Below, in pieces: positions 1 to 36,910 of a stretch of 36,910 nt of DNA (position 1 is its first letter; each line of letters opens with the position of its first letter). The translations under genes were made by a program, and so were the position numbers. The notes below the pieces were generated by a model. The model was not told the DNA's origin. It made no database searches and was given only the letters and a program-made list of their open reading frames with translations. Origin of the DNA: a virus; the IMG/VR virus record IMGVR_UViG_3300028549_001682. One strand, 5' to 3'.

Positions 1-245
1 TTAAAATAACAAAAAATGGAGGAAATGTTATAAGCTTTGTATCTACAACCGATGCAACAACACACAAAATTTATATAAACAGGCAAACTGGAACTTTCAT
101 CTACAAGATAACCAAAAAAGACAATGTTACATATGCACAAATACTAAATTTACCTCCTTACGATAATCGTTCCGATAGTTACAGATTAACTGCTGCTGGG
201 TATACAATGACGGCAGACTTTGAATTTAAACAAGTTACTACACAA
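1..245. repeat. Terminal direct repeat, copy 1 (identical to 36666..36910)
   Basis: Read base by base, 1..245 is the same string as 36666..36910. This implies a unit genome of 36,665 bp. Confidence 0.95.
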
Positions 246-884
246 ATAGGCCCAAATACTATAACACTGCCTGTAACTAGCACATTAGCGCTTGGACATT
301 CTTATCAAATATCAAACAAGGGAGGAGGAAAATTAACGATTAATAGTTCAGGATCTAATCGTGTTGGGTATGTCGAAATTGGCCAGACAATTGAAGTTAT
401 GTGCATATTGACATCTGGGACGACAGCAGCAAGCTGGCAATTATTGCCTGGCTTCCCAAATACTGTATCCGATACCATCTATTTTAATGAGCCGCTTAGT
501 TTCAAGCTAAATATGACTGCTGGTATATTATACACAGCCGTAGTTGCTACACCAGTTTCACCTTACGTTGCTGCATCTGGTGTATTTACCGCCCCTGCGG
601 ATGGTGTTTATTCATTTAATGCTATATTAGCTTTTACATCTGTTGAAATTGCTGCTACAAATCTCTATATGGCATTTGTCCATAGCACAGCTGGCAGTTT
701 TGAAAAGGATATTGATCCTAGGATATTTGCTGCATCGCCTGCAAGATATTCAATGTCATTAAGTTGGACGGTTAAAATGGCAGCAGCAGAAACTATGTCT
801 TTAAAATACAGGATTACCGGCGGTGCTTCAACTACAGATTTGAGCGGAACATTCAGTACATTCAGTGGGTGTAGGGTTATTTAA
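1..884 (+). CDS. Tail fibre protein, 3' part of the junction-spanning gene (codon phase starts at 3), with a C1q/TNF-like C-terminal head
   Basis: The frame of track ORF 207..884 is open back to base 3 and continues the ORF that starts at 36404. C-terminal motifs are GVFTAPADGVYSFNAILAF and STFSGCRVI. Confidence 0.8.
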   Translation, partial: KITKNGGNVISFVSTTDATTHKIYINRQTGTFIYKITKKDNVTYAQILNLPPYDNRSDSYRLTAAGYTMTADFEFKQVTTQIGPNTITLPVTSTLALGHSYQISNKGGGKLTINSSGSNRVGYVEIGQTIEVMCILTSGTTAASWQLLPGFPNTVSDTIYFNEPLSFKLNMTAGILYTAVVATPVSPYVAASGVFTAPADGVYSFNAILAFTSVEIAATNLYMAFVHSTAGSFEKDIDPRIFAASPARYSMSLSWTVKMAAAETMSLKYRITGGASTTDLSGTFSTFSGCRVI

Positions 885-1561: not shown

Positions 1562-3286
1562 ATGGCAATATTGAAAATAGACAATTATGAAGTTTCTCTT
1601 GGAAATAACAATTTGGTATTTTCAAAATCAGCATATTCATTTCAAGATTGGATAACAAAGGATATTCCCTACTCCGAAAGGATAACTTTGCCAGAAACTT
1701 CTTTGCTCAATACTATCTTTTTTAGACCGTACAGTCCAGAAATAACAGGCCAGAAATTCTCTCGAAACCACACTTTCAAGTATCTTGACAATAGTAAAAT
1801 AGTCAATTCTGGAATAGCAAGGCTATTGTCTTTTAATGACAATAATGAATATGAAGTTCAATTGATTGATTCAAGTTTCAATTTATTTTCAAATATTGAT
1901 GGTATTTTGTCAGATTTGGATTTTGAAAGCTCAGATTTTACATATAATTCTGGTTCATATGCTGATAAGAGAGTACTAAATTCAAGCGTTTGGATATGGT
2001 CTGCAAGCTCCATGCACACCGATAAAATACTTGCAAAAAATATATTGAGCGGTAATTTGGCATTTTCACGGCCTTTTTTGTCCGCAAAAAGGTTAATAGA
2101 AAAAATGTTTTCTGACAATGGATGGACATATACGCTTGATGATAATTCAAGTTTGTTTGACAAAATTATCATATCTGCAAAAAGCAATTTTGTTTTTACT
2201 TCATATGAAAAAAAATTTAATGCTACAATTTATGCAAGCGATCTAAATTTGTCGATTCCTGTTTTTTTGAAAACTGATACCTTAACAGGAACCACAGTTT
2301 TGAATTTGACATATAATTCAACATTTAGGTTTCGGGGCTATATTGATGCTACCGAAAATATGGTAATTACAATTACAGCAACGGGACCAAACCCTCAAGT
2401 GCAAAATTTACAAATCAACAAAGGATTGTTCTATTATGATTTGACAAGCAATGAGTTTCAAGCGGGATCTGCTGTTACTTTCGCTTTGTCTGGGGTTAGC
2501 TCTATTGAACTTATAGATTTTATATTGTACACAATCATAAACGAAAATGATTTCGGTGCAATGTCCGGGGCTATATTTACAGATTTTAAGGTAAAAACTT
2601 ACGATAATTTGCCAGAAATTACGCAAAAAGAATTATTCAAACATTGTCTTGTGAAAATTGGAGGGTTTTTTACAAGTGATAATTTTAGCAAAAAAATAAT
2701 TATTTCTTCATTGAAGTCATTGAACAAATTGAATGTAGTTGATTTTTCAGCAAAATATATATATAATAGCGATAATGTCTCAATGCTTGAATATTATGGC
2801 AAAAATAATTATTTCAATTATAACAATAATTCTGAAAAAAGCACGAATTTAGGTAAAGGACTATTTACAATTGACAATGAGGTTCTTGAAAATGTAAAGG
2901 ATATTTATAGCTCAATATTTGAAGCATCCAGCGAGGTTGTAATAACAAATTCTATGATCGACAATTCTATCTATGATGATACAGAAAGGATTCTTGACAC
3001 TAATGTACTTATTGCTTATTATGAAGTTATCGGTGCTTATACAGTTGCTAGGTTTGATTTGTTAAATGGCAACAATATATTATTGTCCTATTATGAAAAT
3101 TTTATAAAAGCTATACAAAGAGGTGAAATCTTTGAATCAAAATTTAATCTCAATAAATCTGATTATTTCAATTTTGATTTTACAAAGCTTATCTATATTA
3201 GTTCTAAAAAATCAATATTCTACTGCTTAGGAATTTCAGACTATTCAGAAAACGAAATGTGTACTATTCAATTATTAAAATTTTAG
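1562..3286 (+). CDS. Hypothetical large virion/tail protein
   Basis: 574-aa ORF in the late operon immediately upstream of the tape-measure gene. I recognised no family motif. Confidence 0.7.
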   Translation: MAILKIDNYEVSLGNNNLVFSKSAYSFQDWITKDIPYSERITLPETSLLNTIFFRPYSPEITGQKFSRNHTFKYLDNSKIVNSGIARLLSFNDNNEYEVQLIDSSFNLFSNIDGILSDLDFESSDFTYNSGSYADKRVLNSSVWIWSASSMHTDKILAKNILSGNLAFSRPFLSAKRLIEKMFSDNGWTYTLDDNSSLFDKIIISAKSNFVFTSYEKKFNATIYASDLNLSIPVFLKTDTLTGTTVLNLTYNSTFRFRGYIDATENMVITITATGPNPQVQNLQINKGLFYYDLTSNEFQAGSAVTFALSGVSSIELIDFILYTIINENDFGAMSGAIFTDFKVKTYDNLPEITQKELFKHCLVKIGGFFTSDNFSKKIIISSLKSLNKLNVVDFSAKYIYNSDNVSMLEYYGKNNYFNYNNNSEKSTNLGKGLFTIDNEVLENVKDIYSSIFEASSEVVITNSMIDNSIYDDTERILDTNVLIAYYEVIGAYTVARFDLLNGNNILLSYYENFIKAIQRGEIFESKFNLNKSDYFNFDFTKLIYISSKKSIFYCLGISDYSENEMCTIQLLKF

Positions 3287-3289
3287 GCT

Positions 3290-6200
3290 ATGGCAGACGA
3301 GCAAATTATTGTAGATATACGGGTAACTAAAGATGATATTGTCAATGCCAAAAATGAAATGGATAGGCTTACAATGTCAATTGACAATTTATCAAGCGAA
3401 ATAAAGGATGCGAGAGATAAGAATAAAGAATTGAACAAATCATTGAAAGAAGGCAAAATCTCAACTGAAGAATATAACAAAGCAGTTACAAAAAATAATG
3501 TTGAAATTGCACAATCATCAAATGAACTCAGAAAATTAAAGAATGAAAGGAACGCAAATATTAACGTTCTACAAAATGAGAAAAGTGCTTACGATGCTCT
3601 CTCATCAAAATTGAACCTAGCACGAAAAGAAGCAAAAGATTTGGGTGCTCAATTTGGCATTACTTCGTCTGAATTTAAGAATGCAGCAAAAACAGTCAAT
3701 CTTCTCGATAATGAACTCAAACAAATTGATGGTGCATTAGGACAACATCAGCGAAATGTCGGAAATTACGGATCTGTTTGGCAAGGTGTAGGAACCGATT
3801 TGAAAAACCTATTCCTTGGCGGTGGAATTGTTTTCGCAATCCAAAAGGGTATCGGCATACTTACAGATTTTGGCAAAGAATCTATACAGGCTGCAAGCGA
3901 TTCACAACAGGCATTTGCGAGAATAGAACAGGCAATAATAACAACGGGCGGGGCTGCTGGATATACAGCGGAACAGCTCAATGAAATGGCAGCTGGACTT
4001 CAAAAGATGACTATTTTTGAGGATGATCAGATTTTGACAGATGTTACATCTCAATTACTTACTTTCACAAATATAGCAGGGACACAATTTGAGCGTGCAC
4101 AAAAAGCGGCACTAGATATGTCAACTGTTTTAGGCAAAGATTTAAACGGTGCAATGGCGAAATTAGGACCGACTTCCATACAAATTGGAAAGGCTCTTAA
4201 TGATCCCATAAAAGGGATAACTGCACTTTCAAAAGCTGGTGTACAATTTTCAGAGGATCAAAAAGCTGTTATAAAATCATTAGTAGAGACTGGCAAGGTA
4301 GCCGAAGCACAAAACATGATACTTAACGAACTTGAAAAAGAATTTGGAGGACAGGCAAAAACAATGGCCGAATCTGGGTTGGGTCCAATCGAAAAACTTA
4401 AAAATAGCTGGGGGGACTTTAAAGAACTTATAGGAGGCGGATTAATCGGAATAATAAACCAGCTTGGAAAAATAGCAGGCGATGTTTTGGGTAAGGTTGT
4501 TGAATGGTTTCAAATTTCTTCAAAATATATAGTTGATTTCATCAATGGCTGGATTGGATTATATAACGAAAGTACTTCTTTTAGGTTGTTAATCGAAAGT
4601 ATATCTGTCACTTTTACAACACTTTATCAGACTGTTAAGCTTATAATGAATGGTTTTATTGATGTTTTCAAAGGGACTGGCAAAGTTTTGGCATATACTT
4701 TTAATCCTGCAAACTGGGGCGCTAATTTTGGCGAAGGTTTGAAAAAAATAATTCTCGAAAACAGCAAAGAAGTTATTACTGATGTCCTGGCTTATGGTTC
4801 AAATGTCGGTAATGCTTTCAATCAGGCTCTCGAAAATTCAAAGAATGGAAAAAAATCTTTGATTTCTCTGGATGATGTAAAAGCTGAAAATGTAAAAATA
4901 ATTGACGAAACAAAAAATTTTACTGATGAAATTACACAAATTAACTCCAACGCAGATTCCGAAAAAACAAAAAGAGCTGAAGAGGTTTCGAAAAAACTGA
5001 TTGAAATAAACAATAAAAAAAGACTTGCTGCTATACAAGATGAAACAATTTTAAAAGATGAAAAAATAAAAATTGAAGGAGAACTGTTGACTGCTCAACT
5101 ATTGTCACTTGAAGAGGGTTCAATAGAAAAAGAACTCTTGATTGCAGAATCCCAAGAACGGATCGCTGAAATAGAAAAAGAATACAACGAAAAACAGGAA
5201 AAGATTGCAGCCGAAAAGATGAAAAAAATAGAGGCGGCAAACGAAAAGATAGAAAAATTAAAAGACGATGCCGCAATAAAAGAAATCGAAAGACAAATAA
5301 AAGATGTTGAAAACTCAAAAGCTACAACAAAGGAAAAAAATGATAAAATTATTGAATTAGAACAACAAAAGAATGAAATATTGATTGCAATTGAGCTTGA
5401 AAAAGTCGCAAAAGCAAAAGAAAATAAATCATTAGAAGAGGCAGAGCTTCAAGCTATAATTACAGAATCGGAAATAAAGATTGCAGCCATTGAAGATGAG
5501 TTTGCGCTAAAGAAAAAAGAAAAAGAAGCAAAGGAAAAAGAGGAACAAATAATTGCACTACAAGAGGGTGTAGAAATAATTAGAAATCAATTATCACAAA
5601 TAAATGCAATAGTAGAGGAATTCGCAGGGGCACAAGCTGCAACTTTTGGAAAGGTAGCCGAATCAATGGTCGGGGCTTTTAAATCTGGAAAGATAACTGT
5701 AGAGAGCGCTATGAAAGCTTTGCAAGGTTCGTCTAATGCCATATTTGATGCTATAAGGGAAAGGGGTCAAGAAAACCTCGATGAAAATGAAATGCTCAGA
5801 CAAAAGGATCTTGAATTAGTTGGTGACAACAAAGAAGCTCAGGACAAAATAAATGTCTATTATGATGAAAGGGCAAAAGAAATGAAATTAAAGCAGTTCA
5901 AGATTGATAAAGCACAGGCTTTAGTTGAGATTGCAATTTCTACCGCCATGGCTGCCGTCAAAGCCCTTGCAAGTACATTCCCACCGTTATCATTTATTGC
6001 AGCTGGTTTGGCTGTTGCTTTCGGAGTTGCACAGGGCGCAATAGTTGCAGCCCAAAAGCCTCCTACTTTCGGAAAAGGAACATCTGATATTGTCAGTATT
6101 GGCGATTCTCATGCTTCTGGAAATGATGTTGATGTTTGGGGGTTTTCAGGTGGTAAAAGGCAATTTTTTGGAAAAGTTGAGCGAGGCGAGGCAATGCCAG

Positions 6201-6448
6201 TGATTAGAAAATCGGCCGCAAATGATTATCTTATCGCAAAAATGAACGGCCAATTTTCAGGACATAGCAAAACATTTGCAAATGGCACTCCTGATATTAC
6301 TCAATCGAATAATAATGCAGCAATAGGGCAAATGAACTCGGAACAATTGGCAAATGCTCTTAGCAAGGTTACTATTGTGGCAAAGATTGAAGATATAACA
6401 AAAGCTGCAAGCAAAAAAATACAGATAGTTGAAAATTCTAAATTTTAG
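3290..6448 (+). CDS. Tail tape measure-like protein
   Basis: 1052 aa. It has a TP901-type TMP core-like stretch (LLTFTNIAGTQFERAQKAALDMSTVLG...KGITALSKAGVQFSEDQKAVIKSL). It also has a long E/K-rich coiled coil and hydrophobic Gly/Ala segments. Confidence 0.85.
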   Translation: MADEQIIVDIRVTKDDIVNAKNEMDRLTMSIDNLSSEIKDARDKNKELNKSLKEGKISTEEYNKAVTKNNVEIAQSSNELRKLKNERNANINVLQNEKSAYDALSSKLNLARKEAKDLGAQFGITSSEFKNAAKTVNLLDNELKQIDGALGQHQRNVGNYGSVWQGVGTDLKNLFLGGGIVFAIQKGIGILTDFGKESIQAASDSQQAFARIEQAIITTGGAAGYTAEQLNEMAAGLQKMTIFEDDQILTDVTSQLLTFTNIAGTQFERAQKAALDMSTVLGKDLNGAMAKLGPTSIQIGKALNDPIKGITALSKAGVQFSEDQKAVIKSLVETGKVAEAQNMILNELEKEFGGQAKTMAESGLGPIEKLKNSWGDFKELIGGGLIGIINQLGKIAGDVLGKVVEWFQISSKYIVDFINGWIGLYNESTSFRLLIESISVTFTTLYQTVKLIMNGFIDVFKGTGKVLAYTFNPANWGANFGEGLKKIILENSKEVITDVLAYGSNVGNAFNQALENSKNGKKSLISLDDVKAENVKIIDETKNFTDEITQINSNADSEKTKRAEEVSKKLIEINNKKRLAAIQDETILKDEKIKIEGELLTAQLLSLEEGSIEKELLIAESQERIAEIEKEYNEKQEKIAAEKMKKIEAANEKIEKLKDDAAIKEIERQIKDVENSKATTKEKNDKIIELEQQKNEILIAIELEKVAKAKENKSLEEAELQAIITESEIKIAAIEDEFALKKKEKEAKEKEEQIIALQEGVEIIRNQLSQINAIVEEFAGAQAATFGKVAESMVGAFKSGKITVESAMKALQGSSNAIFDAIRERGQENLDENEMLRQKDLELVGDNKEAQDKINVYYDERAKEMKLKQFKIDKAQALVEIAISTAMAAVKALASTFPPLSFIAAGLAVAFGVAQGAIVAAQKPPTFGKGTSDIVSIGDSHASGNDVDVWGFSGGKRQFFGKVERGEAMPVIRKSAANDYLIAKMNGQFSGHSKTFANGTPDITQSNNNAAIGQMNSEQLANALSKVTIVAKIEDITKAASKKIQIVENSKF

Positions 6449-6633
6449 CACAAATATTTTTTTCTGTAATATTCCAAGTCCTCAGATTTGATCCGATATT
6501 CTGATCTCATTCCGTGCTTTACTTTTATTGCAGTAAGCTTTTCATTTTCTTTCCCAACCCCGTTTCGGACATAATTACGAATTGTCGCAGGCTCTACATT
6601 TATTATTTTTGATGCTTCTTTTATTGTGAGCAT
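6445..6633 (-). CDS. Small HTH DNA-binding protein (excisionase/AlpA-like, HTH_17-type)
   Basis: 62 aa. LTIKEASKIINVEPATIRNYVRNG fits the helix-turn-helix pattern of excisionase-family binders. Confidence 0.6.
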   Translation of the reverse strand: MLTIKEASKIINVEPATIRNYVRNGVGKENEKLTAIKVKHGMRSEYRIKSEDLEYYRKKYLC

Positions 6634-6797
6634 AATTCGTATTTTTTAAGTTTGTAATAATAAAATAATTGGTCTATAAGCCCATCGCAAGGCTTTTGTT
6701 TTGAAAAATAAACAATCATTTTCCTTGCATTTTCTAGTTGCATATAATCAATACAGCCTTCAATAGATGCTCTTATTTTTTCAAAATTTTCGTACAT
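6621..6797 (-). CDS. Possible small hypothetical protein (58 aa, below the track cutoff)
   Basis: Hand translation gives MYENFEKIRASIEGCIDYMQLENARKMIVYFSKQKPCDGLIDQLFYYYKLKKYELCSQ. Its 3' end overlaps the HTH gene start by 13 nt. Confidence 0.35.
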   Translation of the reverse strand: MYENFEKIRASIEGCIDYMQLENARKMIVYFSKQKPCDGLIDQLFYYYKLKKYELCSQ

Positions 6798-6905
6798 AAT
6801 TTATTTATTTGTAAACGTTTGTAATTGCATAAGTAAATATATCCGGTAACTGTTAATGTACTGGTTATTATTGTCTTATAAATTTTAGTGGCGAATATAC
6901 ACACG

Positions 6906-7127
6906 TTAGCCGTCATTATGAATGCGCTCAACTTCCTTAAATAATCTTGGCATGAAATCTCCAGACTTTTTAAAATTTGTACCCTCTTCAAACCACGCCA
7001 ATTCTTGTTCAGTTACTGGGAATATTAGATTAGCTCTTACAGTTAATTCAATAAATAACGAACGGCTAACATCAGCTATATTTAATTGCTGGTTATCTGC
7101 GATATTCAAGTTTTGTTCTTCGTTCAT
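6906..7127 (-). CDS. Small acidic hypothetical protein
   Basis: 73-aa ORF with an ATG start, net acidic, with an internal NLNIAD/QLNIAD repeat. Confidence 0.5.
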   Translation of the reverse strand: MNEEQNLNIADNQQLNIADVSRSLFIELTVRANLIFPVTEQELAWFEEGTNFKKSGDFMPRLFKEVERIHNDG

Positions 7128-7188
7128 ATATTTGTGTAATTTGACAGTTTAGTATTTCAAAATCAGCAACTAAACATAGCTGTAATCG

Positions 7189-7968
7189 TTAGTTGCAATA
7201 ACCAAACAATCCATTTACGATTGGATAATTGATTATTAAAATTTCGGTATTACGTTTTTTCATTGATTGACGTTCACCGATTGTAATTATTTCTAAGTTC
7301 CTTTGCTTTGCTGTTTCTAAAATAAAAGGGTGTGCAAATTCGCTCATAGCAGCTTTCATTCCCGAATTAAAAGTAACATCAAAGCAATCATTTACATCTT
7401 GCTCAGTCCATTTTTTTTGATACTTTTCAGTTTCAAAATATGGTGGGTCGGAATAAACAAAAGTTCTTTCTTTTACTTTTTCTTTGGTGAATGAAATTTT
7501 ATCAATAACATTTCTGAAATCTTCATTTAAAAACATATTGCCATTTTTAACCAAGTTCAAATATGTTTTTTCAATGTTGTCTAATAGTATTTGCTTTGAA
7601 TTTTCGCCATTTCTGAAATGTAATGAATTAGGTTTACCCATGTAACCGAAATTTGATATGACAAGAAAATAAACAGCTTTTTCAATATCATTTTCAGGTG
7701 TTCGGGTTTTACATTCGTCCCAAAAAGTAGGATGAATTGGTATCATTTCAACATAATTTTTTAACTGTTCTTTTTTTCTCATTAAAACAGTAAAGCAATT
7801 ATATACATTAATATCAATATCATTAAGAAAATTATACTTTGCTTTTGGCTTATTAAAAAACATTCCACCTGCACCAAAGAATAATTCAATATAAGTATTA
7901 TGAACAGGAAAGTATTTTACAATATCCTGAGCAATACGGCTTTTATTTCCTAATCGTCTTAATAACAT
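7189..7968 (-). CDS. DNA adenine methyltransferase, Dam/D12 class
   Basis: Motifs are RRLGNKSRIAQDI, FFGAGG (FxGxG SAM site) and a C-terminal SDPPY. The start is moved to the internal ATG at 7968 (MLLRRLGNKS); the track ORF extends to 8016. Confidence 0.85.
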   Translation of the reverse strand: MLLRRLGNKSRIAQDIVKYFPVHNTYIELFFGAGGMFFNKPKAKYNFLNDIDINVYNCFTVLMRKKEQLKNYVEMIPIHPTFWDECKTRTPENDIEKAVYFLVISNFGYMGKPNSLHFRNGENSKQILLDNIEKTYLNLVKNGNMFLNEDFRNVIDKISFTKEKVKERTFVYSDPPYFETEKYQKKWTEQDVNDCFDVTFNSGMKAAMSEFAHPFILETAKQRNLEIITIGERQSMKKRNTEILIINYPIVNGLFGYCN

Positions 7969-10332: not shown

Positions 10333-11451
10333 ATGGCAAAGCCTATCATCCTATATGATGTAATAGATTCAGATTCAGCAAAAAAAATTACTGAAAATAT
10401 TATCGAGCATCCAGAAAATGAACCCCTCGAAATATGGATGAACAGTCCAGGGGGATCGGTTTCTGCTGGCTGGTCAATCCTTGCTGCACTTCAAAAAAAT
10501 CGAGGCAAAAAGAACATTACAGTTATGGGCGATGCTTCCAGCTTTGCTTTTTTCATGCTTCTTTTTTCAGATAAAAATATTGCTTATGACACTTCAAATT
10601 TTCTAATTCATAGGGCTGCAAGCTTTTTGGAAGAATTAATGAATGATGACGAGCTAAAGGATATTGAAGAAAGAAATAATATTTTAAGATCAAAACTAGA
10701 AAACAGAATAGACCAGCAAAAATTCATTTCTGTAACAGGAAAAACATTTGACGAAATCTTTTCAATGGAAAACAGAATTGATGTTAGGTTAAATGCAATG
10801 CAAGCAAAAGAAATCGGATTGATTGATGAGGTTATCAAATTGGATGTAAAAAAGCGTAAAGATTTAGATTTAAAATATTTCATGGACATAGCCGCTTTGG
10901 CTGGTTCTGAAAATCAAGTTAATATTAATTTAAAAAATGAGAAAATGGGAAAATTAACCGATTTAATTTTCGGAGAGAAAGAGCCTGTTTTAATTGCTAA
11001 GATTGGTGACAGCCAATTTGTATACTCAAAACTAGAAGCTGGCGCGAAAGTTAAGGCTATCGGTAGCGATGTAAAGGCAATTTCAGGGACTTTTGAATCT
11101 GAAAACAAACAAATTACGGTTGTTGAAAATGAAATCACTGCCGTTAAGGATTTGGATTTGAATGCAAAGAAAATTGAAACATTGGAAGCTTCAATAGCTG
11201 AAATGAAGAAAAATCAAGTTACAGCAGAGGACATAAAAGAAGTTTTTGAAAAATTTGCAGAAAAACAAAATGCCGAAATTTCGGCTATTAAGGATGCCTT
11301 GGCCTCTGCAAAGTTATCGGTTTCAAAACCTAAGCTGCCAGAAGGTGAATTTGTTAACGAACCTGTAAAGGATTCAATGACTGTGGCCGAGCGAATTATT
11401 GCCGCCCAACAAAAAAAATATGAAGAAAACTTAAAGAATAGGGGGATCTAA
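10333..11451 (+). CDS. Prohead protease (ClpP/S14 family) fused to a scaffold-like C-terminal domain
   Basis: Motifs are NSPGGSVSAGWSILAAL, GDASSFAF (Ser nucleophile context) and LIHRA (His). The C-terminal half is an E/K-rich coiled coil. Confidence 0.85.
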   Translation: MAKPIILYDVIDSDSAKKITENIIEHPENEPLEIWMNSPGGSVSAGWSILAALQKNRGKKNITVMGDASSFAFFMLLFSDKNIAYDTSNFLIHRAASFLEELMNDDELKDIEERNNILRSKLENRIDQQKFISVTGKTFDEIFSMENRIDVRLNAMQAKEIGLIDEVIKLDVKKRKDLDLKYFMDIAALAGSENQVNINLKNEKMGKLTDLIFGEKEPVLIAKIGDSQFVYSKLEAGAKVKAIGSDVKAISGTFESENKQITVVENEITAVKDLDLNAKKIETLEASIAEMKKNQVTAEDIKEVFEKFAEKQNAEISAIKDALASAKLSVSKPKLPEGEFVNEPVKDSMTVAERIIAAQQKKYEENLKNRGI

Positions 11452-11454
11452 AAA

Positions 11455-12405
11455 ATGGCAGATACTTTCGTAAGCACAAATTATAATGGTGAACTGGATG
11501 AATACCTGTATAAGGTATTAGGACTTGGTGCGCAAACCGCAGAAAAAGGTGGCTATCACCTTATACCAGACGTTAACATGAAACAGGAATTGGATTTCGT
11601 TGAAACTACAGAAGATCCGATGACTGATTATACAGACGACACCCCGTCAACTGGAGCGACTGCAACTACTATGAAAAAAAGGGAATTAAGCCCTTTAAAA
11701 TTCACAGTTTGGGGCCAAATTACCCCTTCAGCATGGTTGCCAATTTGGAGAAAATACCGTTCAATTGGAACATTGACACAATTGAGTGCAAATCCACAGT
11801 TTTTAAGGGATGTTTTTGAACTTGTGAAAAATGCAAGTGCAAGGCAATTGGATAAATTATTTTGGCAAGGTGATACAACAGCCGGAGCAGCATCTCCACT
11901 TAGATTTTTCGATGGTATTATCAAAAAACTTGAGGCTGATTCTGATTCAAACGTTATTTTCATAACACCCGCAGGAACTATCACGAAAAGCAATATTGTT
12001 TCAATTTTGGAAGCTTTTTACGCCGCTATTCCAAACAAGTTTTTTGATGATCCAGATTTCAGAATCCACATGAATACAGGTGATTTCAAGTTGTTGCAAT
12101 ATTTCAACAACGATGTGAAAAAAACTACATTCGGAGTTTTGGATCAGACTATCAGCCGTTTGTTTTTGGAAAAAAGAATCGAACATTTCAATAACATTCC
12201 AGCTTCTAAGATTGTTGGTGCAAAGACTTCAAGCGCAGCGAACTCTAACCTTGTGCTTGGAATGTATGCTTCTTTGGAATCTGAATTGATGGGACTGAAA
12301 ATTGAGAAAAAAGACCTTTCAAACATTACCAGATACCGTTTTGACGGAATGGCAGATACTCAATACCGATTTGGTGGCGACATTGTTTATTATAAACCAG
12401 TTTAA
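11455..12405 (+). CDS. Major capsid protein (putative HK97-fold)
   Basis: 316-aa ORF directly after the protease/scaffold gene. The call rests on position and size only. Confidence 0.7.
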   Translation: MADTFVSTNYNGELDEYLYKVLGLGAQTAEKGGYHLIPDVNMKQELDFVETTEDPMTDYTDDTPSTGATATTMKKRELSPLKFTVWGQITPSAWLPIWRKYRSIGTLTQLSANPQFLRDVFELVKNASARQLDKLFWQGDTTAGAASPLRFFDGIIKKLEADSDSNVIFITPAGTITKSNIVSILEAFYAAIPNKFFDDPDFRIHMNTGDFKLLQYFNNDVKKTTFGVLDQTISRLFLEKRIEHFNNIPASKIVGAKTSSAANSNLVLGMYASLESELMGLKIEKKDLSNITRYRFDGMADTQYRFGGDIVYYKPV

Positions 12406-16905: not shown

Positions 16906-17043
16906 TTACATGAAACTGCCGTTTGTTTCATCAGCATCATCAATTTCACGTTTTTTCTCAATTACCACAAGCCCGGCGAATAGCAATATAAAGCTTATCA
17001 AACCTGCTATATAAAGTACTGTATCAAATGTTTCTTTTTCCAT
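16906..17043 (-). CDS. Possible small single-pass membrane protein (45 aa)
   Basis: Hand translation gives MEKETFDTVLYIAGLISFILLFAGLVVIEKKREIDDADETNGSFM. It starts 2 nt after the stop of the upstream gene. Confidence 0.4.
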   Translation of the reverse strand: MEKETFDTVLYIAGLISFILLFAGLVVIEKKREIDDADETNGSFM

Positions 17044-17044
17044 G

Positions 17045-17779
17045 TTATTGTTCGATTATTGCTATTTCAGGACAAATCGCAGTAATTTCAACAAGCTCGT
17101 CATTGATTGCTTGGTCCCTAATATCCTCAACCAATGCCTGTGCTCCAGGAGATAGAAGCGTGAACGAAACTTCCTTGCCGTTGATCTGTGCAAAGGTTTC
17201 AACCTCGATAATCTGGGCGGGGAACCCCTTGAAAATTTGCAGCTTCAGGTTGATAGATTTTGGAAGGTTAGAGTTGACAGTTTGCTCAAAATTGTCAGTC
17301 CTGTCACCGCTTTCTTTGGCCGAACGCTGGATGCTGTTGTTGACCGTGGCTGTGAAGTTCATCAGCTCGCTCACAAGCTTCATGTTTTCCTCTCTGGAAG
17401 TGAAAAAAGCACGGTTCATTTTGAAGAACATTCCAAGGCTGGAAGGTGTCCAAACCTTCCCAGAATTGATTCCGAACTCTTTGAATTTTGGATGCGATTC
17501 AAGCTTTCCCGAAACAGAACCCTTAAGGTATTCGTCGTGTTCGTTAGTAACGAGGCAGATAAGCATCTGCTCACGGTCAACGATTACATGGCTTCGTTTT
17601 GGTGGTATTTGGTCTATCCTTTTTGCCAAAAACTCCGCAGGGGCACCAATTGTGCCAATGATAGCAATCCTTATAGGCGGTTTAATTTCCAGTTCGTTAA
17701 CTGTTGAAACCTCGCGGATAACGATTTCAGCTGTCTTTTGGCCATCGGCCATTACAATTTTAAAATTCTCGTTTTTCAT
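17045..17779 (-). CDS. Hypothetical protein (GC-elevated block)
   Basis: 244-aa ORF with an ATG start. Local GC is about 47% on hand-counted lines. The long plus-strand ORFs over it are mirror artefacts. Confidence 0.7.
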   Translation of the reverse strand: MKNENFKIVMADGQKTAEIVIREVSTVNELEIKPPIRIAIIGTIGAPAEFLAKRIDQIPPKRSHVIVDREQMLICLVTNEHDEYLKGSVSGKLESHPKFKEFGINSGKVWTPSSLGMFFKMNRAFFTSREENMKLVSELMNFTATVNNSIQRSAKESGDRTDNFEQTVNSNLPKSINLKLQIFKGFPAQIIEVETFAQINGKEVSFTLLSPGAQALVEDIRDQAINDELVEITAICPEIAIIEQ

Positions 17780-17799
17780 TTTTATAAATTTAAAATTTA

Positions 17800-18102
17800 T
17801 TAGTTTTCAGTCCCAGTGCGCTTCATCTGGAATATAGTGCCTTGCAGTTCGTCTGCATATGCCGGACGGCTCTCTATAAGTTCTCCCTCCTCGTTGTAAT
17901 ATCCCACCTCCCTTGCATCCATGTCAACAAATTTGTAGCAGTTCTCTACTTTATGTTCTGCCTTGTTTTTAAGTCCCGTTAGCAGCCTTTTCTTTTCATC
18001 GTTCAAAGGTTCAAGCCTGAACTTGAACTCTGACATAACCGCTTTTTTGTCCTCCTCTATATCGTTGATCTGAATAGCCGTTTCTGAAAGGTGCTCCTTC
18101 AT
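17800..18102 (-). CDS. Hypothetical protein
   Basis: The track ORF starts at TTG 18108. The first ATG, at 18102, gives MKEHLSETAIQ.... Confidence 0.55.
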   Translation of the reverse strand: MKEHLSETAIQINDIEEDKKAVMSEFKFRLEPLNDEKKRLLTGLKNKAEHKVENCYKFVDMDAREVGYYNEEGELIESRPAYADELQGTIFQMKRTGTEN

Positions 18103-23217: not shown

Positions 23218-23748
23218 ATGGCAATAACTAAAAAAATAAGATTTGAAGTATTTAAAAGAGATTATTTTAAATGTCAATATTGCGGGAAAACACCCCCTGA
23301 TGTAACTTTAGAAGTAGATCATATTAAACCTAAAAGTAAAAAGGTGACTGATGATATAAACAATTTAGTTACTGCTTGTTTTGACTGTAATAGAGGTAAA
23401 AAACATATCGAATTAAACAAATTGCCAAATACAATTATATTAAATTCTGAAATATTAAAAGAGAAAGAATCTCAGTATTTAGAATACCAAAAATTATTAA
23501 CTAAAATAAATAAACGAATTGATTCAGATATACTCAGAGTAGAAAATATCTATAATGAAATGTTCCTAAAATACTGTTTTACTGAATCGTTTAAAAGGGT
23601 AAGTGTAAAAAATTTCGTTTCAAAATTAGGATTAAATGATGTAATGGATTCAATGAGTTTAGCATGCTCAAAAATAAATGATCCTAGTGATGCCTTAAAA
23701 TATTTTTGTGGGATTTGTTGGAATAAAATAAAGAACAATGTCATATAG
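23218..23748 (+). CDS. HNH endonuclease
   Basis: FKCQYCGKTPPDVTLEVDHIKPKS...NNLVTACFDCNRGKKH contains the HNH motif with flanking CxxC pairs. Confidence 0.85.
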   Translation: MAITKKIRFEVFKRDYFKCQYCGKTPPDVTLEVDHIKPKSKKVTDDINNLVTACFDCNRGKKHIELNKLPNTIILNSEILKEKESQYLEYQKLLTKINKRIDSDILRVENIYNEMFLKYCFTESFKRVSVKNFVSKLGLNDVMDSMSLACSKINDPSDALKYFCGICWNKIKNNVI

Positions 23749-26838: not shown

Positions 26839-28248
26839 ATGGAATTTAAGCCTCTTGATGTATATGAACCATTATATTTTACTCCAAAAAATGTAAGGTA
26901 TATATCATGTTGCGGTGGCCGTGGGGCTGGAAGGTCTCACAATTCGTCTGAATATTTGATTTTCAAGATAACAAGAAAAGTATACTTTCGTGCTTTAATT
27001 GCAAGAGCTTATTATTCAGACCTTAAAAAAACAACATGGCTGGAATTTTTGGATAGGATAAATTCAACTGAAGGACTTGATATTGAAAATTTTGAAATAA
27101 ACAACACCGAAAAAATAATAAAATACAAACCCACTGGCAACACAATAACCGGAATAGGATTCCATAAAGCAGCAGGTAATAGAAAAGCAAGCCTTAAAGC
27201 CTTTGCAAATGTTACAGATTTACTGATTGAAGAGGCTCAGGAACTGACAGAGACGGAACTTAATCAAATTGATGATAGCCTCCGAACAACCAAAAGCCCA
27301 ATAAAGATAATTTTTGCTTACAATATGCCTGAAAAAAGCCATATTCTCATGAAAAGGTTTTTTGATTTGCAACCTGTTAATCTGGTTTGTGGAAATGGAA
27401 TCAAGCACGAAGGATATTGCAAGGCTATTCCAAAATCGGAGCGTGATGACCATATAATGATTTTTTCTACTTACCACGATAATTATGAAAATCTTGATAA
27501 GCATACTATTGAAAATTACGAACGTTACAATTTTGAAAACCCGGAACATTATTTTACCGAAATTTTGGGGCTTGTTTCAGGCGGTGCGAAAGGTGTAATT
27601 TTTAAATATGAAATAAACTGGTTCATATATACCGAACTCCCAGATATTGATTTTTATGAAACATACGGATTGGATTTTGGCGGTGGAGGTGTCAATGGAA
27701 ATAGGAACTGTTATCCTGATATGTTCCAATTTGATGAATCTGACGGGAGTTCTACAACAGTATTGGTCAGGCTGTTAATTAACAAATCTTCAATGAGTTG
27801 CTATGTTAAATTATTACTATACAAGGCTTACATTTCACCTGATGAACTTAGTAAAGCTTGCCAGCATTTCACAATTGAGCCAGACGGCAATTTCTTTAAG
27901 AAAAAAAATATTCTCGCAGATAATGCCAGGGCTGACAAAATTCGGGACTTGATAAATGATGGACTTAACGTTATTGGTGCAAAGACAAAAGAAGGTGGCT
28001 CTAACAAGGTAGTAACTGGAATAGACATCATGAAAAAATACAAGATTTTTTTTCTTGAAACTGATATTCCATGCCACATGGATGCAAACAATTATAAATG
28101 GGAGGTATCTAATATAACAGGAGAATTAACAGGTAATCATGTCAAGAAATTTGAAAATGTTATTGATGCTATCAGGTATCCTTTAGTTAATTTTGATTTA
28201 TATCACTGGTCTGTTATTGGAATTTTTTTTTATATTTGTAGTGCCTAA
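26839..28248 (+). CDS. terL: Terminase large subunit (Terminase_3/PBSX-like)
   Basis: Walker A-like CCGGRGAGRSH, Walker B LLIEEAQE, and a C-terminal nuclease motif VIDAIRY. Confidence 0.9.
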   Translation: MEFKPLDVYEPLYFTPKNVRYISCCGGRGAGRSHNSSEYLIFKITRKVYFRALIARAYYSDLKKTTWLEFLDRINSTEGLDIENFEINNTEKIIKYKPTGNTITGIGFHKAAGNRKASLKAFANVTDLLIEEAQELTETELNQIDDSLRTTKSPIKIIFAYNMPEKSHILMKRFFDLQPVNLVCGNGIKHEGYCKAIPKSERDDHIMIFSTYHDNYENLDKHTIENYERYNFENPEHYFTEILGLVSGGAKGVIFKYEINWFIYTELPDIDFYETYGLDFGGGGVNGNRNCYPDMFQFDESDGSSTTVLVRLLINKSSMSCYVKLLLYKAYISPDELSKACQHFTIEPDGNFFKKKNILADNARADKIRDLINDGLNVIGAKTKEGGSNKVVTGIDIMKKYKIFFLETDIPCHMDANNYKWEVSNITGELTGNHVKKFENVIDAIRYPLVNFDLYHWSVIGIFFYICSA

Positions 28249-28330: not shown

Positions 28331-28618
28331 ATGCAAACAGAAACATGGATAGATATACCTAGATATTTTGGATATAAAGTATCAAATTTTGGTAATGTAA
28401 GAACTTTAAAAAAGAAAAGAGATTTAATATTAAAACCATTTAAAAGCAATAGTGGATATTTATTTGTAAGATTATTTGTTAATAGAAAATTTTATAATAG
28501 ATACTTGCATTCCTTAGTTGCAATAGCATTTCTTGATCACGATCGTATATTGTCAGAATTGATTATTGATCATATTGATGGCAATAGATCGATTATTCAG
28601 GCTTTGTTTTTTAAATAA
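28331..28618 (+). pseudogene. NUMOD4/HNH_3-type homing endonuclease remnant (truncated)
   Basis: It has WIDIPRYFGYKVSNFGNVRTL (NUMOD4-like) and HSLVAIAFL...DHIDGNRS. The ORF then ends before the distal Asn/His of the HNH motif. Confidence 0.5.
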
Positions 28619-30716: not shown

Positions 30717-31337
30717 ATGACAGAAGTAGATCCTATTTTTACAACGTGGCTAAATTCAACTCCGCCCGCTTATCCTAGTGATATTCCTAGTATAACAGGA
30801 TTAGAAGCAACTGAAAATAAGGATGCTTCAAACGGATATGTAGGGCTAACATTATACGCACATAATTTCTGGAATGCAGCAAAAACATTCCTAACAACGG
30901 TTATTGGAACAGCAACAGAAACAAGAACTATTCTACTGCCAAATGCGAGCGGAACACTAGCATTAACAACTGATATAGTAAACAGCCGCTTACAATCCTA
31001 TACAACAACAGCAACCGCAACAGGAACGACTACCTTAACCGCTGCATCCAATTTCATGCAGTATTTTACTGGCACATTGGGACAAATTATTGTAATGCCT
31101 GATGTTACGACTTTAGTTTTAGGTTTTCAATTCAAGATAATCAATAACAGTACACAAGCTTTGACATTAAATTCAAGCGGTGGAAATTTGATTATTTCTT
31201 TGGCAGCTGGTAGCGAAATAACATTGACCTGCATATTGATAACAGGTACAACCGCTGCAAGCTGGTCAAAATTGGCCGAAGCTGTCAATATTCCAGCAAG
31301 TGAGAAAGCCGTAACAATCGGAACTACTGGATTATAG
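30717..31337 (+). CDS. Tail fibre-like protein B
   Basis: It has the fibre-type motif LLPNASGTLALTTD and Thr-rich repeats. It shares a 63-aa module with the junction-spanning fibre. GGAGG lies 7 nt upstream of its start. Confidence 0.7.
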   Translation: MTEVDPIFTTWLNSTPPAYPSDIPSITGLEATENKDASNGYVGLTLYAHNFWNAAKTFLTTVIGTATETRTILLPNASGTLALTTDIVNSRLQSYTTTATATGTTTLTAASNFMQYFTGTLGQIIVMPDVTTLVLGFQFKIINNSTQALTLNSSGGNLIISLAAGSEITLTCILITGTTAASWSKLAEAVNIPASEKAVTIGTTGL

Positions 31338-31349
31338 ACTAGCTATGAT

Positions 31350-31670
31350 TTGCAAGCTCATATAATTGCAGTTGGGACATTGGCATCTCAAAGCTGGGTA
31401 ACTGGTCAAGCAACTTACACAGGATTGCAGGGACAATGGACGGCGGATGCAAATTACAAATATGATTGTATTGCTACAAACATTTGGATAAGGACACCAA
31501 TCAATGAAGCAAGGTATGATAGCAAATTGAACGATGTTCATTACGTAATTGACAGAGAAACAAGCAATTCTTACATATACGTAGTATACATATACCCTTC
31601 ACATCAAGGATTATTTGATATGATTAATGCCGCTTACGGATACGAAATTATTAAAATTGAAACAAGATGA
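31350..31670 (+). CDS. In-frame continuation of fibre B, or a separate TTG-initiated ORF
   Basis: It is in the same frame as 30717..31337, and only the TAG at 31335..31337 intervenes. There is no ATG until codon 91 of 106. The N-terminus AVGTLASQSWVTGQ is fibre-like. Confidence 0.5.
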   Translation: MQAHIIAVGTLASQSWVTGQATYTGLQGQWTADANYKYDCIATNIWIRTPINEARYDSKLNDVHYVIDRETSNSYIYVVYIYPSHQGLFDMINAAYGYEIIKIETR

Positions 31671-31807
31671 ACACTTTAAGGGTAAAAGTAGTGAGGGATT
31701 CAACAGGTGTAGGGGCAGATACATATAATGATGACCTAGGAATAGATTATATCGATGTTCATTATATAACAAATAGAAATGGCAGTTTAAACGAAGCAAG
31801 CGATTAA
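31667..31807 (+). CDS. Possible 46-aa ORF
   Basis: ATGA overlap with the upstream stop. Hand translation gives MNTLRVKVVRDSTGVGADTYNDDLGIDYIDVHYITNRNGSLNEASD. Confidence 0.3.
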   Translation: MNTLRVKVVRDSTGVGADTYNDDLGIDYIDVHYITNRNGSLNEASD

Positions 31808-31859
31808 CATGGAAACAATAATCAAAATAAAGGATAAAAAATTAATTAAATAAGAAAGG

Positions 31860-32612
31860 ATGAGCGACACAATTCTAGTGACTTTTATAGTGCAAATCTT
31901 TGGTATTATAGGCTTTTTCGCCAAATCGTGGAGCGACAAAAGAGCAAACCAAAAAGAAACAACTACCAGGGATAAAAATTTCCAACTGAAGGTATTAGAA
32001 ATCCAATCTGAAAATACTAATATCAACATGGAATTGATAGAAATTAAGGATATGCTGAAAACCCATATAGTAGATAATGATTTCCAGTTAAAATATAAAA
32101 ACGCTCTGCAAAACAGAGCTACTCATGAACTTTACAAGCTTCAAAACCTTTCAACGCAGCATCAATTGATATTGTCTGCATGGAATGAAATAATAGAAAA
32201 ATTCGGGATTAAGTGGTATTATTCAGATTTGAGAAAAGATCAAAAGGACAAAAAAGCGAATGGAGAAAAAATTCAAACTGTAAAAAAAGATATACAAGAT
32301 ACATTAACTCATGAAATAAATCTAAAAATTGAGTTCATGGACAAAATAATCCGGCAAAATATTACATGCCCAAAAATAGTCCAGGCATCAAAGATGTATT
32401 TCGATGAGTTCATCAATGGCAAAAGAGAAAATCTAATGCCTATCCACTCACGAACCGAACTTTTAATTTTAGCCTTGGCCGAAAATGGACTATCAAATGA
32501 TGGGTATATTGATTTATTTGAAAATTATCTGATTGAATTCTATACAAATTATAAAAGAAAATTGGACATTTGGCAATCAATCCCATGTCCTGAATATCAA
32601 GATATAGACTAA
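31860..32612 (+). CDS. Membrane-anchored hypothetical protein (N-terminal TM helix)
   Basis: 250 aa. ILVTFIVQIFGIIGFFA is a TM segment, followed by a helical soluble domain. TAATG coupling to the next gene. Confidence 0.6.
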   Translation: MSDTILVTFIVQIFGIIGFFAKSWSDKRANQKETTTRDKNFQLKVLEIQSENTNINMELIEIKDMLKTHIVDNDFQLKYKNALQNRATHELYKLQNLSTQHQLILSAWNEIIEKFGIKWYYSDLRKDQKDKKANGEKIQTVKKDIQDTLTHEINLKIEFMDKIIRQNITCPKIVQASKMYFDEFINGKRENLMPIHSRTELLILALAENGLSNDGYIDLFENYLIEFYTNYKRKLDIWQSIPCPEYQDID

Positions 32613-32980
32613 TGTTTACGAGAAAGAACTATAATCAAATGCCTGAAATTGTAATTGATGAAACTTTAAATATCATTACAGTATCAGGTAATTCGATACC
32701 TGAAGATTCGAAAGAATGTTGGTACCCTTTTATTAATGAATTTGAATTTCTATTCGAGAAATGGCCTAAAATAACGTTTAATTGGAAATTCGATATATAC
32801 AATACTGCAACAACTTCACATATTGCGAAAATTTTCGATATGCTTTTTAAAGTTTCACAAAAAAAAGAAGTTGTAATTAATTGGTATTATTTGTTGGCAG
32901 ATGAAGACATGATGGAAGCAGGAGAAACTTATAAGGATTTATATAATTTTAATAAATTTAACCTAATTGTAAGGAAATGA
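32612..32980 (+). CDS. SiaC-like / DUF1987-family protein (partner-switch phosphoprotein fold)
   Basis: Full-length pattern match to DUF1987 as recalled. The three matching segments are SGNSIPEDSKECWYPFINEF, FDIYNTATTSHIAKIFDML and VVINWYYLLADEDMMEAGETYKDL. Confidence 0.7.
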   Translation: MFTRKNYNQMPEIVIDETLNIITVSGNSIPEDSKECWYPFINEFEFLFEKWPKITFNWKFDIYNTATTSHIAKIFDMLFKVSQKKEVVINWYYLLADEDMMEAGETYKDLYNFNKFNLIVRK

Positions 32981-33075
32981 TAACAAATGTATTAATTTTA
33001 ACAGCCTTTGCAGTTTTAATAATTGTTGGGTTTTTGGCTATATTGGCTTATTTGGAAAAAAAATATAAAGATTAA
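32977..33075 (+). CDS. Small single-pass membrane protein (32 aa)
   Basis: Hand translation gives MITNVLILTAFAVLIIVGFLAILAYLEKKYKD. ATGA overlap with the upstream gene. Confidence 0.45.
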   Translation: MITNVLILTAFAVLIIVGFLAILAYLEKKYKD

Positions 33076-33078
33076 ATT

Positions 33079-33189
33079 ATGATAGTATTAAAGATAGTTA
33101 TTTTGTCCCTAATAGCTATTGTTGCCGCAATGGTTATTATAATGATTCAGGATAAGCGAAGTTGGAATAAGAAAAAAGGCTCAAATTAG
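33079..33189 (+). CDS. Small single-pass membrane protein (36 aa)
   Basis: Hand translation gives MIVLKIVILSLIAIVAAMVIIMIQDKRSWNKKKGSN. It starts 3 nt after the previous stop. Confidence 0.45.
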   Translation: MIVLKIVILSLIAIVAAMVIIMIQDKRSWNKKKGSN

Positions 33190-36403: not shown

Positions 36404-36910
36404 ATGGCTATCAAAAATAGAACAGAGGCAATTGCGGAAGTAAATGCAAAGCTAGTTCCAACAATTACTGCTGCAATTCATAGAGATAATCTAAATAATG
36501 ACATTCTTAACAGTGTAAAATTCGATAAAGATGTTATAGGAACGGAAACGCCTGTTGCTGGAGCTGTTACGGTTGATTTTTCCACAAAGGATCTTGCAAC
36601 GCTTACTACTATTGTTAACTTGTCTGTAACAATCACAGGTCTGGAAAATGGTGCTGAAAAATATATTAAAATAACAAAAAATGGAGGAAATGTTATAAGC
36701 TTTGTATCTACAACCGATGCAACAACACACAAAATTTATATAAACAGGCAAACTGGAACTTTCATCTACAAGATAACCAAAAAAGACAATGTTACATATG
36801 CACAAATACTAAATTTACCTCCTTACGATAATCGTTCCGATAGTTACAGATTAACTGCTGCTGGGTATACAATGACGGCAGACTTTGAATTTAAACAAGT
36901 TACTACACAA
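36404..36910 (+). CDS. Tail fibre protein, 5' part of the junction-spanning gene (runs off the window end and continues at 3..884)
   Basis: Hand translation from the ATG at 36404 (MAIKNRTEAIAEVNAKLVPT...) meets no stop before the window end. It is in frame with 207..884 via the terminal repeat (36872-36404 = 468). Confidence 0.75.
   Translation, partial: MAIKNRTEAIAEVNAKLVPTITAAIHRDNLNNDILNSVKFDKDVIGTETPVAGAVTVDFSTKDLATLTTIVNLSVTITGLENGAEKYIKITKNGGNVISFVSTTDATTHKIYINRQTGTFIYKITKKDNVTYAQILNLPPYDNRSDSYRLTAAGYTMTADFEFKQVTTQ
36666..36910. repeat. Terminal direct repeat, copy 2 (identical to 1..245)
   Basis: Same string as 1..245. Confidence 0.95.

Follow-up and report, generated by a model that had tools for sequence, protein, structure and literature searches.

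A SiaC-family gene and the gene of an orphan membrane protein form a mobile accessory cassette in phages

What does a relative of a bacterial partner-switch regulator do among the late genes of a phage, and on which protein does it act? The question is raised by a locus in IMG/VR virus record IMGVR_UViG_3300028549_001682, a stretch of 36,910 nt that was analysed at its full length and that we refer to as the window. A sequence-only reading of positions 31,860 to 32,980 had recognized there a SiaC/DUF1987-like gene coupled to the gene of a membrane protein of 250 amino acids (aa), here called A, and had suggested that the block may be a moron plugged into host signalling. What is known of SiaC/DUF1987 proteins comes from a single studied system, Pseudomonas SiaABCD, in which SiaC activates a diguanylate cyclase. 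We found that A and SiaC form an obligate pair, found just in viral or phage-like sequence, and that the cassette built around them is a mobile accessory module and not a part of the virion. The cassette and its immediate flanks are laid out as follows.

31833..31859, + strand: conserved leader, the 27 nt before the start of A and the 5' edge of the mobile unit; homology begins at 31833 with the related locus L003 and at 31848 with locus L001
31860..32612, + strand: gene A, 250 aa, founder of an orphan family, predicted single-pass transmembrane (TM) protein; open reading frame (ORF) with no family match
32612..32980, + strand: SiaC-family (DUF1987, predicted STAS-like) protein, 122 aa; PF09345 match of 76.9 bits; start overlaps the stop of A (TAATG)
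32804..32806, + strand: ACT codon for T65 (motif Y-N-T-A-T-T), equivalent by alignment to T68, the phospho-acceptor of Pseudomonas aeruginosa SiaC (PaSiaC)
32977..33075, + strand: tiny TM peptide 1, 32 aa, predicted N-out/C-in, basic C-tail; start overlaps the SiaC stop (ATGA)
33079..33189, + strand: tiny TM peptide 2, 36 aa, predicted N-out/C-in from its charge pattern, basic C-tail; ORF
31350..31807, + strand: upstream flank, ORFs of 106 and 46 aa outside the cassette; no homology in L001, L003 or L004
33194..33658, + strand: downstream flank, g154, 154 aa, phrog_21534; backbone gene and anchor of the presence/absence survey

The 122-aa protein matched the Pfam SiaC family (PF09345, formerly DUF1987) with E=1.3e-21, its score lying far above the gathering threshold of 24.5 bits. 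The match covers residues 7-119 and profile positions 4-118 of 120, and so strong a full-length match excludes chance similarity and bears out the assignment first made from sequence motifs. A phmmer search of PDB sequences aligned the protein to the PaSiaC chains 6KKO, 6KKP, 7E6G and 6K4F. The three motifs singled out by the sequence-only reading, including the phospho-threonine region, fall on their PaSiaC counterparts (GNSIPEDS on GDSYPENS, YNTATT on LNTSS, and INWYY..DEDMMEAGE on LRWHY..NERVAELAE), with T65 standing on T68. This phospho-acceptor column is Thr or Ser in 123/123 SiaC proteins compared, and all 12 members of the A-linked set keep it (10 Thr and 2 Ser). On NCBIfam's SiaC equivalog model, NF038265, the phage protein scored 42.6 bits, under the cut-off of 150, and because of this shortfall we class it on profile evidence as a member of the SiaC family but not an orthologue of Pseudomonas SiaC. 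Its identity is 33-38% to Bacteroidota SiaC proteins and 25% to PaSiaC. It is a stand-alone single domain, as long as expected beside cellular relatives of ~126 aa, and its full-length profile match predicts a STAS-like alpha/beta fold. The alpha-2 face of the A-linked SiaCs departs from the near-invariant cellular NTSSSKCILD motif, and in a crude neighbour-joining tree these SiaCs are mostly nearest one another, yet not cleanly monophyletic.

What sets the phage protein apart is the company that its gene keeps. A co-oriented PF09345 gene directly follows A in 14/14 lineages with readable downstream DNA, stop and start mostly overlapping, as they do at the TAATG junction of the window, where both ORFs and their coupling lie where they were first read. 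Identity to the pair of the window is 90% for A and 89% for SiaC in L003, 68% and 69% in L001, 42% for A in L004, and 30% and 37% in L170. Further pairs, with SiaC directly after A, are found in L015, L018, L020, L147, L165 and the P0036 contig, on the IMG/VR contigs L021 and L151, and in L149, where A is represented by P0059, a marginal member of the family (E=1e-4). Among the paired lineages the identity of A to the window copy drops to about 21-25%. We found no counter-example, as contigs without SiaC all end just after A; in L154 and L161 an A-like gene is convergent to the SiaC gene.

Cellular SiaC genes have a different neighbour. They were sampled by a scan of genomes for the C-terminal motif of the family, which gave at least 120 loci, nearly all from Bacteroidota and thus taxonomically skewed. 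Among the matches listed, 118/120 loci encode a genuine SiaC of ~126 aa, an A-family neighbour stands at 0/120, and a SiaB-family kinase (NF038262, 161.6 bits, cut-off 85) is encoded directly upstream of SiaC at 88/120; cellular L053 also carries a SiaA-type PP2C domain (6K4E, E=1e-29). The same motif returned 13 SiaC loci from IMG/VR, four with an A-family neighbour and nine solitary, and a SiaB gene was absent from every viral SiaC locus examined. Pattern scans of IMG/VR for A itself gave no match, nor did a genome scan using patterns from the variable N-terminus; a hand-made SiaC motif pattern did match IMG/VR. The view of the phage SiaC as an orphan in need of a host partner gives way to one in which A is its likely cognate partner, given the constant adjacency of A in the viral lineages and its absence from the cellular loci listed.

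Several viral SiaC loci deserve mention in their own right. A near-identical solitary SiaC gene of 129 aa occurs among HNH-like genes on the IMG/VR contigs L152, L153, L158, L159, L160, L162 and L163 (up to 349 kb), with neither an A-family nor a SiaB neighbour; near it, L163 encodes a divergent 138-aa coiled-coil protein with a C-terminal TM anchor. L157 (IMGVR_UViG_3300022890_000011, 166 kb) carries at 1026-1397 a lone viral SiaC gene whose similarity to the SiaB-linked type of Bacteroidota cells is ~78%; it adjoins a TnpB-like gene and ClpP, which suggests a recent capture from a host. A GGDEF gene was seen near the cassette in one lineage of about 15: in L021 (IMGVR_UViG_3300042991_000644) a minimal GGDEF protein of 136 aa (6252-6662, - strand; AGDEF motif, PF00990, 40 bits) is encoded convergently to the A-SiaC-peptide cassette, as is a radical-SAM protein (6650-7636, - strand). 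With this single occurrence and no GGDEF domain in the window, we rejected a cyclic di-GMP (c-di-GMP) link as a general feature of the cassette, and the c-di-GMP, biofilm or motility role floated at first finds no support.

The cassette moves between phages as a unit. The nucleotide homology of the window to L003 is confined to 31833..32978 (84% identity), which begins 27 nt before A and closes with the SiaC stop codon; that to L001 is confined to 31848..33058 (70%). In both comparisons the flanks are unrelated. Elsewhere A-SiaC cassettes lie in unrelated contexts, for example beside VRR_NUC, SNF2/methylase or DnaN-like genes. Presence and absence were surveyed in metagenomes with g154 as the anchor, which gave 14 sister loci of 49-67% identity; TerL and a gene of 448 aa, used as anchors in IMG/VR, gave no usable sister phages. 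In L176 and L178 the backbone g159-g151...g154-g448-g128-g322 is kept and the cassette is absent, with fibre-like and small unrelated genes in its place, and the cassette is likewise absent from nine shorter relatives whose sequence extends 600 nt or more beyond g154 on its upstream side. L170 has a divergent A-SiaC-peptide trio at the same site, beside a g154 that is 64% identical, and is the sole g154 relative with A-SiaC upstream. The site upstream of g154 is thus a hypervariable accessory hotspot. Since the A-SiaC core is swapped between unrelated flanks and absent from sister backbones, we conclude that the cassette is accessory, mobile and no part of the virion. The moron-like, non-structural character proposed by the sequence-only reading is upheld by this survey; a virion component conserved in all relatives, which it had named as the sign of a structural role, is not what the sister phages display. 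At the hotspot of L177 (46-684) we noted an unrelated 212-aa protein with an N-terminal TM segment, whose similarity to the A family is not meaningful (E=0.046, -0.6 bits); accessory proteins with a membrane anchor may be favoured at this position.

The partner of SiaC, protein A, has a single N-terminal TM helix and, as first read, no recognizable domain: no significant match came from Pfam, PHROG, NCBIfam or PADLOC. When 1.84 billion representative proteins were searched exhaustively with HMMER, relatives turned up in 61 clusters at E<=1e-3, nearly all full-length at 220-280 aa, and A therefore founds an orphan family. An alignment of 46 sequences displays a common plan: first the N-terminal TM helix, next a juxtamembrane stretch of basic character and a helical segment whose length varies, and after these the conserved motifs. 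In A itself the TM helix comprises about residues 4-21, a long helix runs to residue 93, and a compact all-helical head occupies about residues 99-240. Residues F75, L105, W108, R125, L149, F181, L202, L206, N209, G210, F220 and W238 are conserved across the family, and indels are concentrated at residues 31-53. AlphaFold2, given the 46-row alignment, modelled a single helix over residues 2-93 and a compact helical domain with a small hairpin (predicted local distance difference test, pLDDT, 92.9; predicted template modelling score, pTM, 0.74); this model superseded one from a two-row alignment with a pLDDT of 40. Foldseek found nothing with E<1 for the model in PDB or BFVD, and the family profile had no relative among PDB sequences, where it met just coiled-coil noise. 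Nor does the head hold a conserved polar set suggestive of catalysis. We make no claim of a coiled-coil stalk, as a crude heptad test of residues 25-95 gave no clear 3.5-residue periodicity. Basic residues follow the TM segment in 46/46 members (on average 4.65 Lys and Arg within the 15 residues behind it, compared with 0.24 ahead of it), and because of this bias A is predicted to lie N-out/C-in, with its soluble domain in the cytoplasm alongside SiaC.

The two tiny membrane ORFs that had been noticed behind SiaC recur in the relatives. Of the 12 lineages whose DNA can be read beyond SiaC, nine (9/12) have one to four ORFs of 29-41 aa behind it; each encodes one hydrophobic helix followed by a basic C-tail, and its start often overlaps the preceding stop. 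There are two in the window, three in L004, four in L020, and one each in L003, L018, L021, L165 and L170; L001 has one as the N-terminus of a 150-aa protein. The homology between window and L001 reaches 33058, and there the TM segment of peptide 1 stands at the start of that protein. All 13 peptides tested (13/13) have the same N-out/C-in charge bias as the A anchor, and we regard the tiny TM peptides as belonging to the module. Directly after its peptides L004 encodes a 73-aa protein with two TM segments. In L015 the A-SiaC pair is followed, at 2934-3603, by a 106-aa protein (phrog_15610, annotated 'protease', E=1e-20) and then by a 133-aa TM protein with a weak match to Rz-like spanins (phrog_739, E=9.5e-5).

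The genome that carries the cassette is a complete phage genome. An exact terminal direct repeat of 245 bp (1-245 = 36666-36910) indicates a circular sequence of ~36,665 bp, and contigs of the same phage, 36.6-36.9 kb long, have come from several metagenomes. We recognized genes for TerL, portal, protease, a capsid-like protein, tape measure, RecT/exonuclease, DnaB, two methyltransferases and Rha/Ant-like proteins. The cassette occupies part of the late region, after TerL (26839-28248) and, once the circle is closed, before the tape-measure gene (3290-6448). Its first description as sitting inside a tail-gene cluster was only roughly right, and the tail and fibre similarity of its neighbours is weak: the 106-aa ORF of the upstream flank resembles a tail-protein C-terminus (phrog_17312, E=9e-5 over 37 residues), and a second match is to phrog_4209 (E=0.058). 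No + strand terminator was found flanking the cassette or between it and the genes upstream, and a sigma-70 promoter scan of the region gave 22 sites where 18.5 were expected, Bacteroidota-type promoters being outside its scope. A six-frame search of the whole window with the SiaB hidden Markov model and with the L053 PP2C domain in phmmer (E<=10) found no SiaB-type kinase, PP2C domain or GGDEF domain, nor did Pfam or PHROGs give a PP2C match there, in agreement with the initial remark that the phage encodes no kinase, phosphatase or cyclase partner. No endolysin, holin or spanin was recognizable in the whole window with Pfam and PHROGs. Although the genome has Rha/Ant-like and RecT/exonuclease genes, neither an integrase nor a repressor was found in it, and it thus gives no evident sign of lysogeny. 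Searches of the window for tRNAs and for Rfam families gave 0 matches each. A motif resembling a Shine-Dalgarno (SD) sequence stands upstream of just 4/32 genes, and upstream regions are A-rich. Few SD motifs and A-rich upstream regions are typical of Bacteroidota-type translation initiation. From this, and from the greater identity of the phage SiaC to Bacteroidota SiaC proteins than to PaSiaC, we infer that the host belongs to the Bacteroidota.

How might such a cassette work? In the Pseudomonas system, residues N67, T68 and S69 at the start of PaSiaC helix alpha-2 insert between the stalk helices of SiaD, the product of the adjacent gene, and on binding the inactive SiaD pentamer gives way to an active dimer; phosphorylated T68 blocks this binding, and the authors propose that DUF1987 proteins generally modulate the product of an adjacent gene (PMC8457831). 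SiaB is the kinase that phosphorylates T68, and SiaA removes the phosphate again (PMC7647112). With moderate confidence, we favour the reading that the cassette is a self-contained, membrane-anchored partner-switch output module in which SiaC gates the adjacent A. That A is the cognate target of the phage SiaC appears likely because of their strict linkage, translational coupling and shared cytoplasmic location. By analogy with PaSiaC and SiaD, the cytoplasmic, STAS-like phage SiaC would bind the cytoplasmic helix or head of A and switch its state, and the trailing peptides of 30-40 aa, which share the predicted N-out/C-in topology, might associate with the TM helix of A in the membrane. The switch would probably be set by host enzymes of the SiaB/SiaA type, since the Thr/Ser is retained, the phage has no kinase or phosphatase of its own, and likely hosts carry SiaB, and sometimes SiaA, beside SiaC; we consider such control plausible, at somewhat under an even chance. 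SiaA/SiaB-type enzymes report envelope or carbon status in Pseudomonas. Our best guess at the output is control of a membrane event during infection, for example superinfection exclusion or lysis timing, as suggested by late-operon expression, membrane location and an accessory hotspot beside fibre genes, and the evidence does not discriminate between these two as the output of A. At its most ambitious, the proposal would have the phage eavesdrop on a host Ser/Thr partner switch, with host SiaB/SiaA modifying the phage SiaC, which would then engage or release A and the micro-peptides. This we regard as speculative and doubtful; if true, lysis timing or exclusion would depend on the physiological state of the host, and a bacterial partner switch would have acquired a viral output module that is portable and centred on a previously unseen fold.

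Several observations weigh against a gating role for SiaC. Retention of Thr or Ser could reflect a role in binding, as T68 hydrogen-bonds SiaD, and not phosphorylation. The genome scan, being nearly confined to Bacteroidota among the matches listed, is not a taxonomically unbiased sample of cellular SiaC neighbourhoods. As nine of the 13 IMG/VR SiaC genes are solitary, viral SiaCs do not all act through A. The head of A, with neither a fold match nor a catalytic-looking polar set, gives no clue to the output, and the lack of coiled-coil periodicity in residues 25-95 makes the analogy with the SiaD stalk a loose one.

Other explanations were weighed against the same evidence. The phage SiaC might hijack or decoy a host partner switch by titrating host SiaB/SiaA or binding the targets of host SiaC, with A as a mere membrane tether, so that physiology under SiaABC control, such as aggregation or c-di-GMP levels, would be rewired. 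The retained phospho-site and neighbouring motif would suit such a decoy, and the inferred host phylum commonly carries SiaB-SiaC with or without SiaA, enzymes of which the phage encodes none; the convergent GGDEF gene of L021 and the solitary SiaC genes of other viral contigs, with the cellular-type gene of L157 among them, point the same way. However, A and SiaC are co-inherited and translationally coupled down to about 21-25% identity, which argues for a dedicated partner and not a tether, the A-linked SiaCs are distant from cellular ones and unlike them on the alpha-2 face, and the GGDEF gene is confined to one lineage, so that we think this explanation improbable. Still less is to be said for a structural or morphogenetic part of the tail/fibre module. 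Such a role would explain why the cassette is co-oriented with and set among late genes, with no + strand terminator upstream and no enrichment of promoter-like sites, yet it is largely refuted, and in our view very nearly excluded, by the absence of the cassette from sister phages with the same backbone and its presence in unrelated genomes; moreover, one of its products belongs to a regulatory family and another is TM-anchored.

Two further alternatives keep the membrane at the centre and differ from the favoured gating module in what A and the peptides would do. They may form a holin/antiholin-like assembly for lysis timing, its oligomerization gated by SiaC from the cytoplasm, with a parallel in the action of RIII and RI on T4 holin T. 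The lack of a recognizable lysis gene in the window leaves room for this, the cassette follows fibre-like genes in several lineages, a classic position for lysis genes, and L015 and L004 have the Rz-like candidate, two genes downstream, and the two-TM protein noted above; PaSiaC, for its part, alters the oligomeric state of its partner (PMC8457831). Yet the sisters L176 and L178 lack the cassette and have nothing similar at the site, and an essential function is not dispensable unless replaced; none of A, SiaC or the peptides matches a Pfam or PHROG lysis family, the peptides are smaller than known holins, and the spanin link is one weak match. We hold this, too, to be quite improbable. Alternatively, A and the peptides may block DNA entry or receptor function as a moron for superinfection exclusion (Sie) or membrane immunity, with SiaC as its on/off regulator. 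Among Sie proteins, small inner-membrane products of moron genes are common. Here too the products are predicted inner-membrane proteins, the cassette sits in a hypervariable hotspot beside host-range (fibre) genes and is swapped between unrelated phages, and in L177 this site is taken by an unrelated N-TM protein. Against this, no cassette protein matched a known Sie or defence family (PADLOC, E<=0.1), lysogeny, where the benefit of Sie is clearest, is not evident in a genome in which no integrase or repressor was found, and the large domain of A is predicted to face the cytoplasm and not the periplasm, where incoming DNA and tail proteins are met. This explanation, likewise, we rate as unlikely.

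The module that we favour, with SiaC gating A, matters beyond this phage. A switch protein of a known family has been recruited by phages and appears wired to a different membrane partner, seen just in viral or phage-like sequence. This supports the proposal that DUF1987 proteins regulate the products of adjacent genes, defines a new, structurally unassigned membrane protein family with a testable binding partner, and suggests that phages may tap host Ser/Thr phospho-signalling. It also provides, for expression and dissection, a compact three-part system of about 1.3 kb from phages that probably infect Bacteroidota, whose accessory genes are almost wholly uncharted. PHROGs v4 has no family for A or SiaC. 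Among 50,697 deposited phage genomes (INPHARED), four SiaC-family and two A-family queries had no tblastn match, and a 9-kb region had none by megablast. The A and SiaC phage proteins are named in no public source searched, and we found no paper linking DUF1987/SiaC or partner switching to phage-encoded modules, a literature coverage that is incomplete and no proof.

The rest of the genome has features of its own. Its module order is unusual: TerL (26839) is followed by fibre-like and unknown virion genes, the tape measure (3290-6448), two minus-strand DNA methyltransferases, protease and capsid (10333-12405) and then portal (13653). A gene of 381 aa crosses the junction of the window, and ORF 207..884 is merely its C-terminal part. 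A 206-aa fibre-like protein (30717-31337) is 45% identical over 62 aa to part of this junction protein (261-446), which looks like a duplicated or shared fibre module. GC content peaks at 17028-17837 (42% against ~32% for the genome), where long overlapping ORFs of 269 aa (+ strand) and 244 aa (- strand) have no family match. Genes with HNH endonuclease and NUMOD4 domains (23218-23748 and 28331-28618), which are probably homing endonucleases, border the replication and terminase region.

Set beside known systems, the cassette shares with phage morons and fibre-gene hotspots its variable presence at a fixed site, its exchange between unrelated phages and its small membrane proteins. In phage T4, RIII and RI regulate the holin T. 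T4 T-RI-RIII likewise combines a single-pass membrane protein with a small cytoplasmic binding protein; the cassette, however, has no sequence or fold similarity to morons or to the T4 proteins, and A, predicted to keep its large domain on the cytoplasmic side, would be oriented the other way round from T4 holin T. STAS partner switches of the anti-sigma-antagonist type that regulate enzymes (HsbA-HsbD and BgrV-BgrR, with SpoIIAA and RsbV as archetypes) also rely on a small alpha/beta protein that can be phosphorylated and changes partners, and SiaC is structurally related to STAS (PMC7647112, PMC8457831); unlike these, the phage element is without an anti-sigma kinase, and its presumed output protein is membrane-anchored. 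The Bacteroidota SiaB-SiaC modules, with or without SiaA, probably come from the host phylum of the phage and hold the closest cellular SiaCs among the matches listed, with a common W-x-Y-x3-DEDM-x3-GE C-terminal motif, but in the phages their pattern of neighbours is reversed, A being present and SiaB absent. P. aeruginosa SiaABCD is alike in its PF09345 switch subunit with an N-T-S-type phospho-site at the start of alpha-2, in a switch gene that adjoins the gene of the presumed target, and in a target that begins with a long helix. It differs in that the phage SiaC is only distantly related to PaSiaC in identity and equivalog score and comes with no SiaA or SiaB, and in that the phage partner is a novel membrane-anchored helical protein and not a GGDEF cyclase, encoded ahead of SiaC with overlapping codons and joined by tiny TM peptides in a unit that is viral and mobile.

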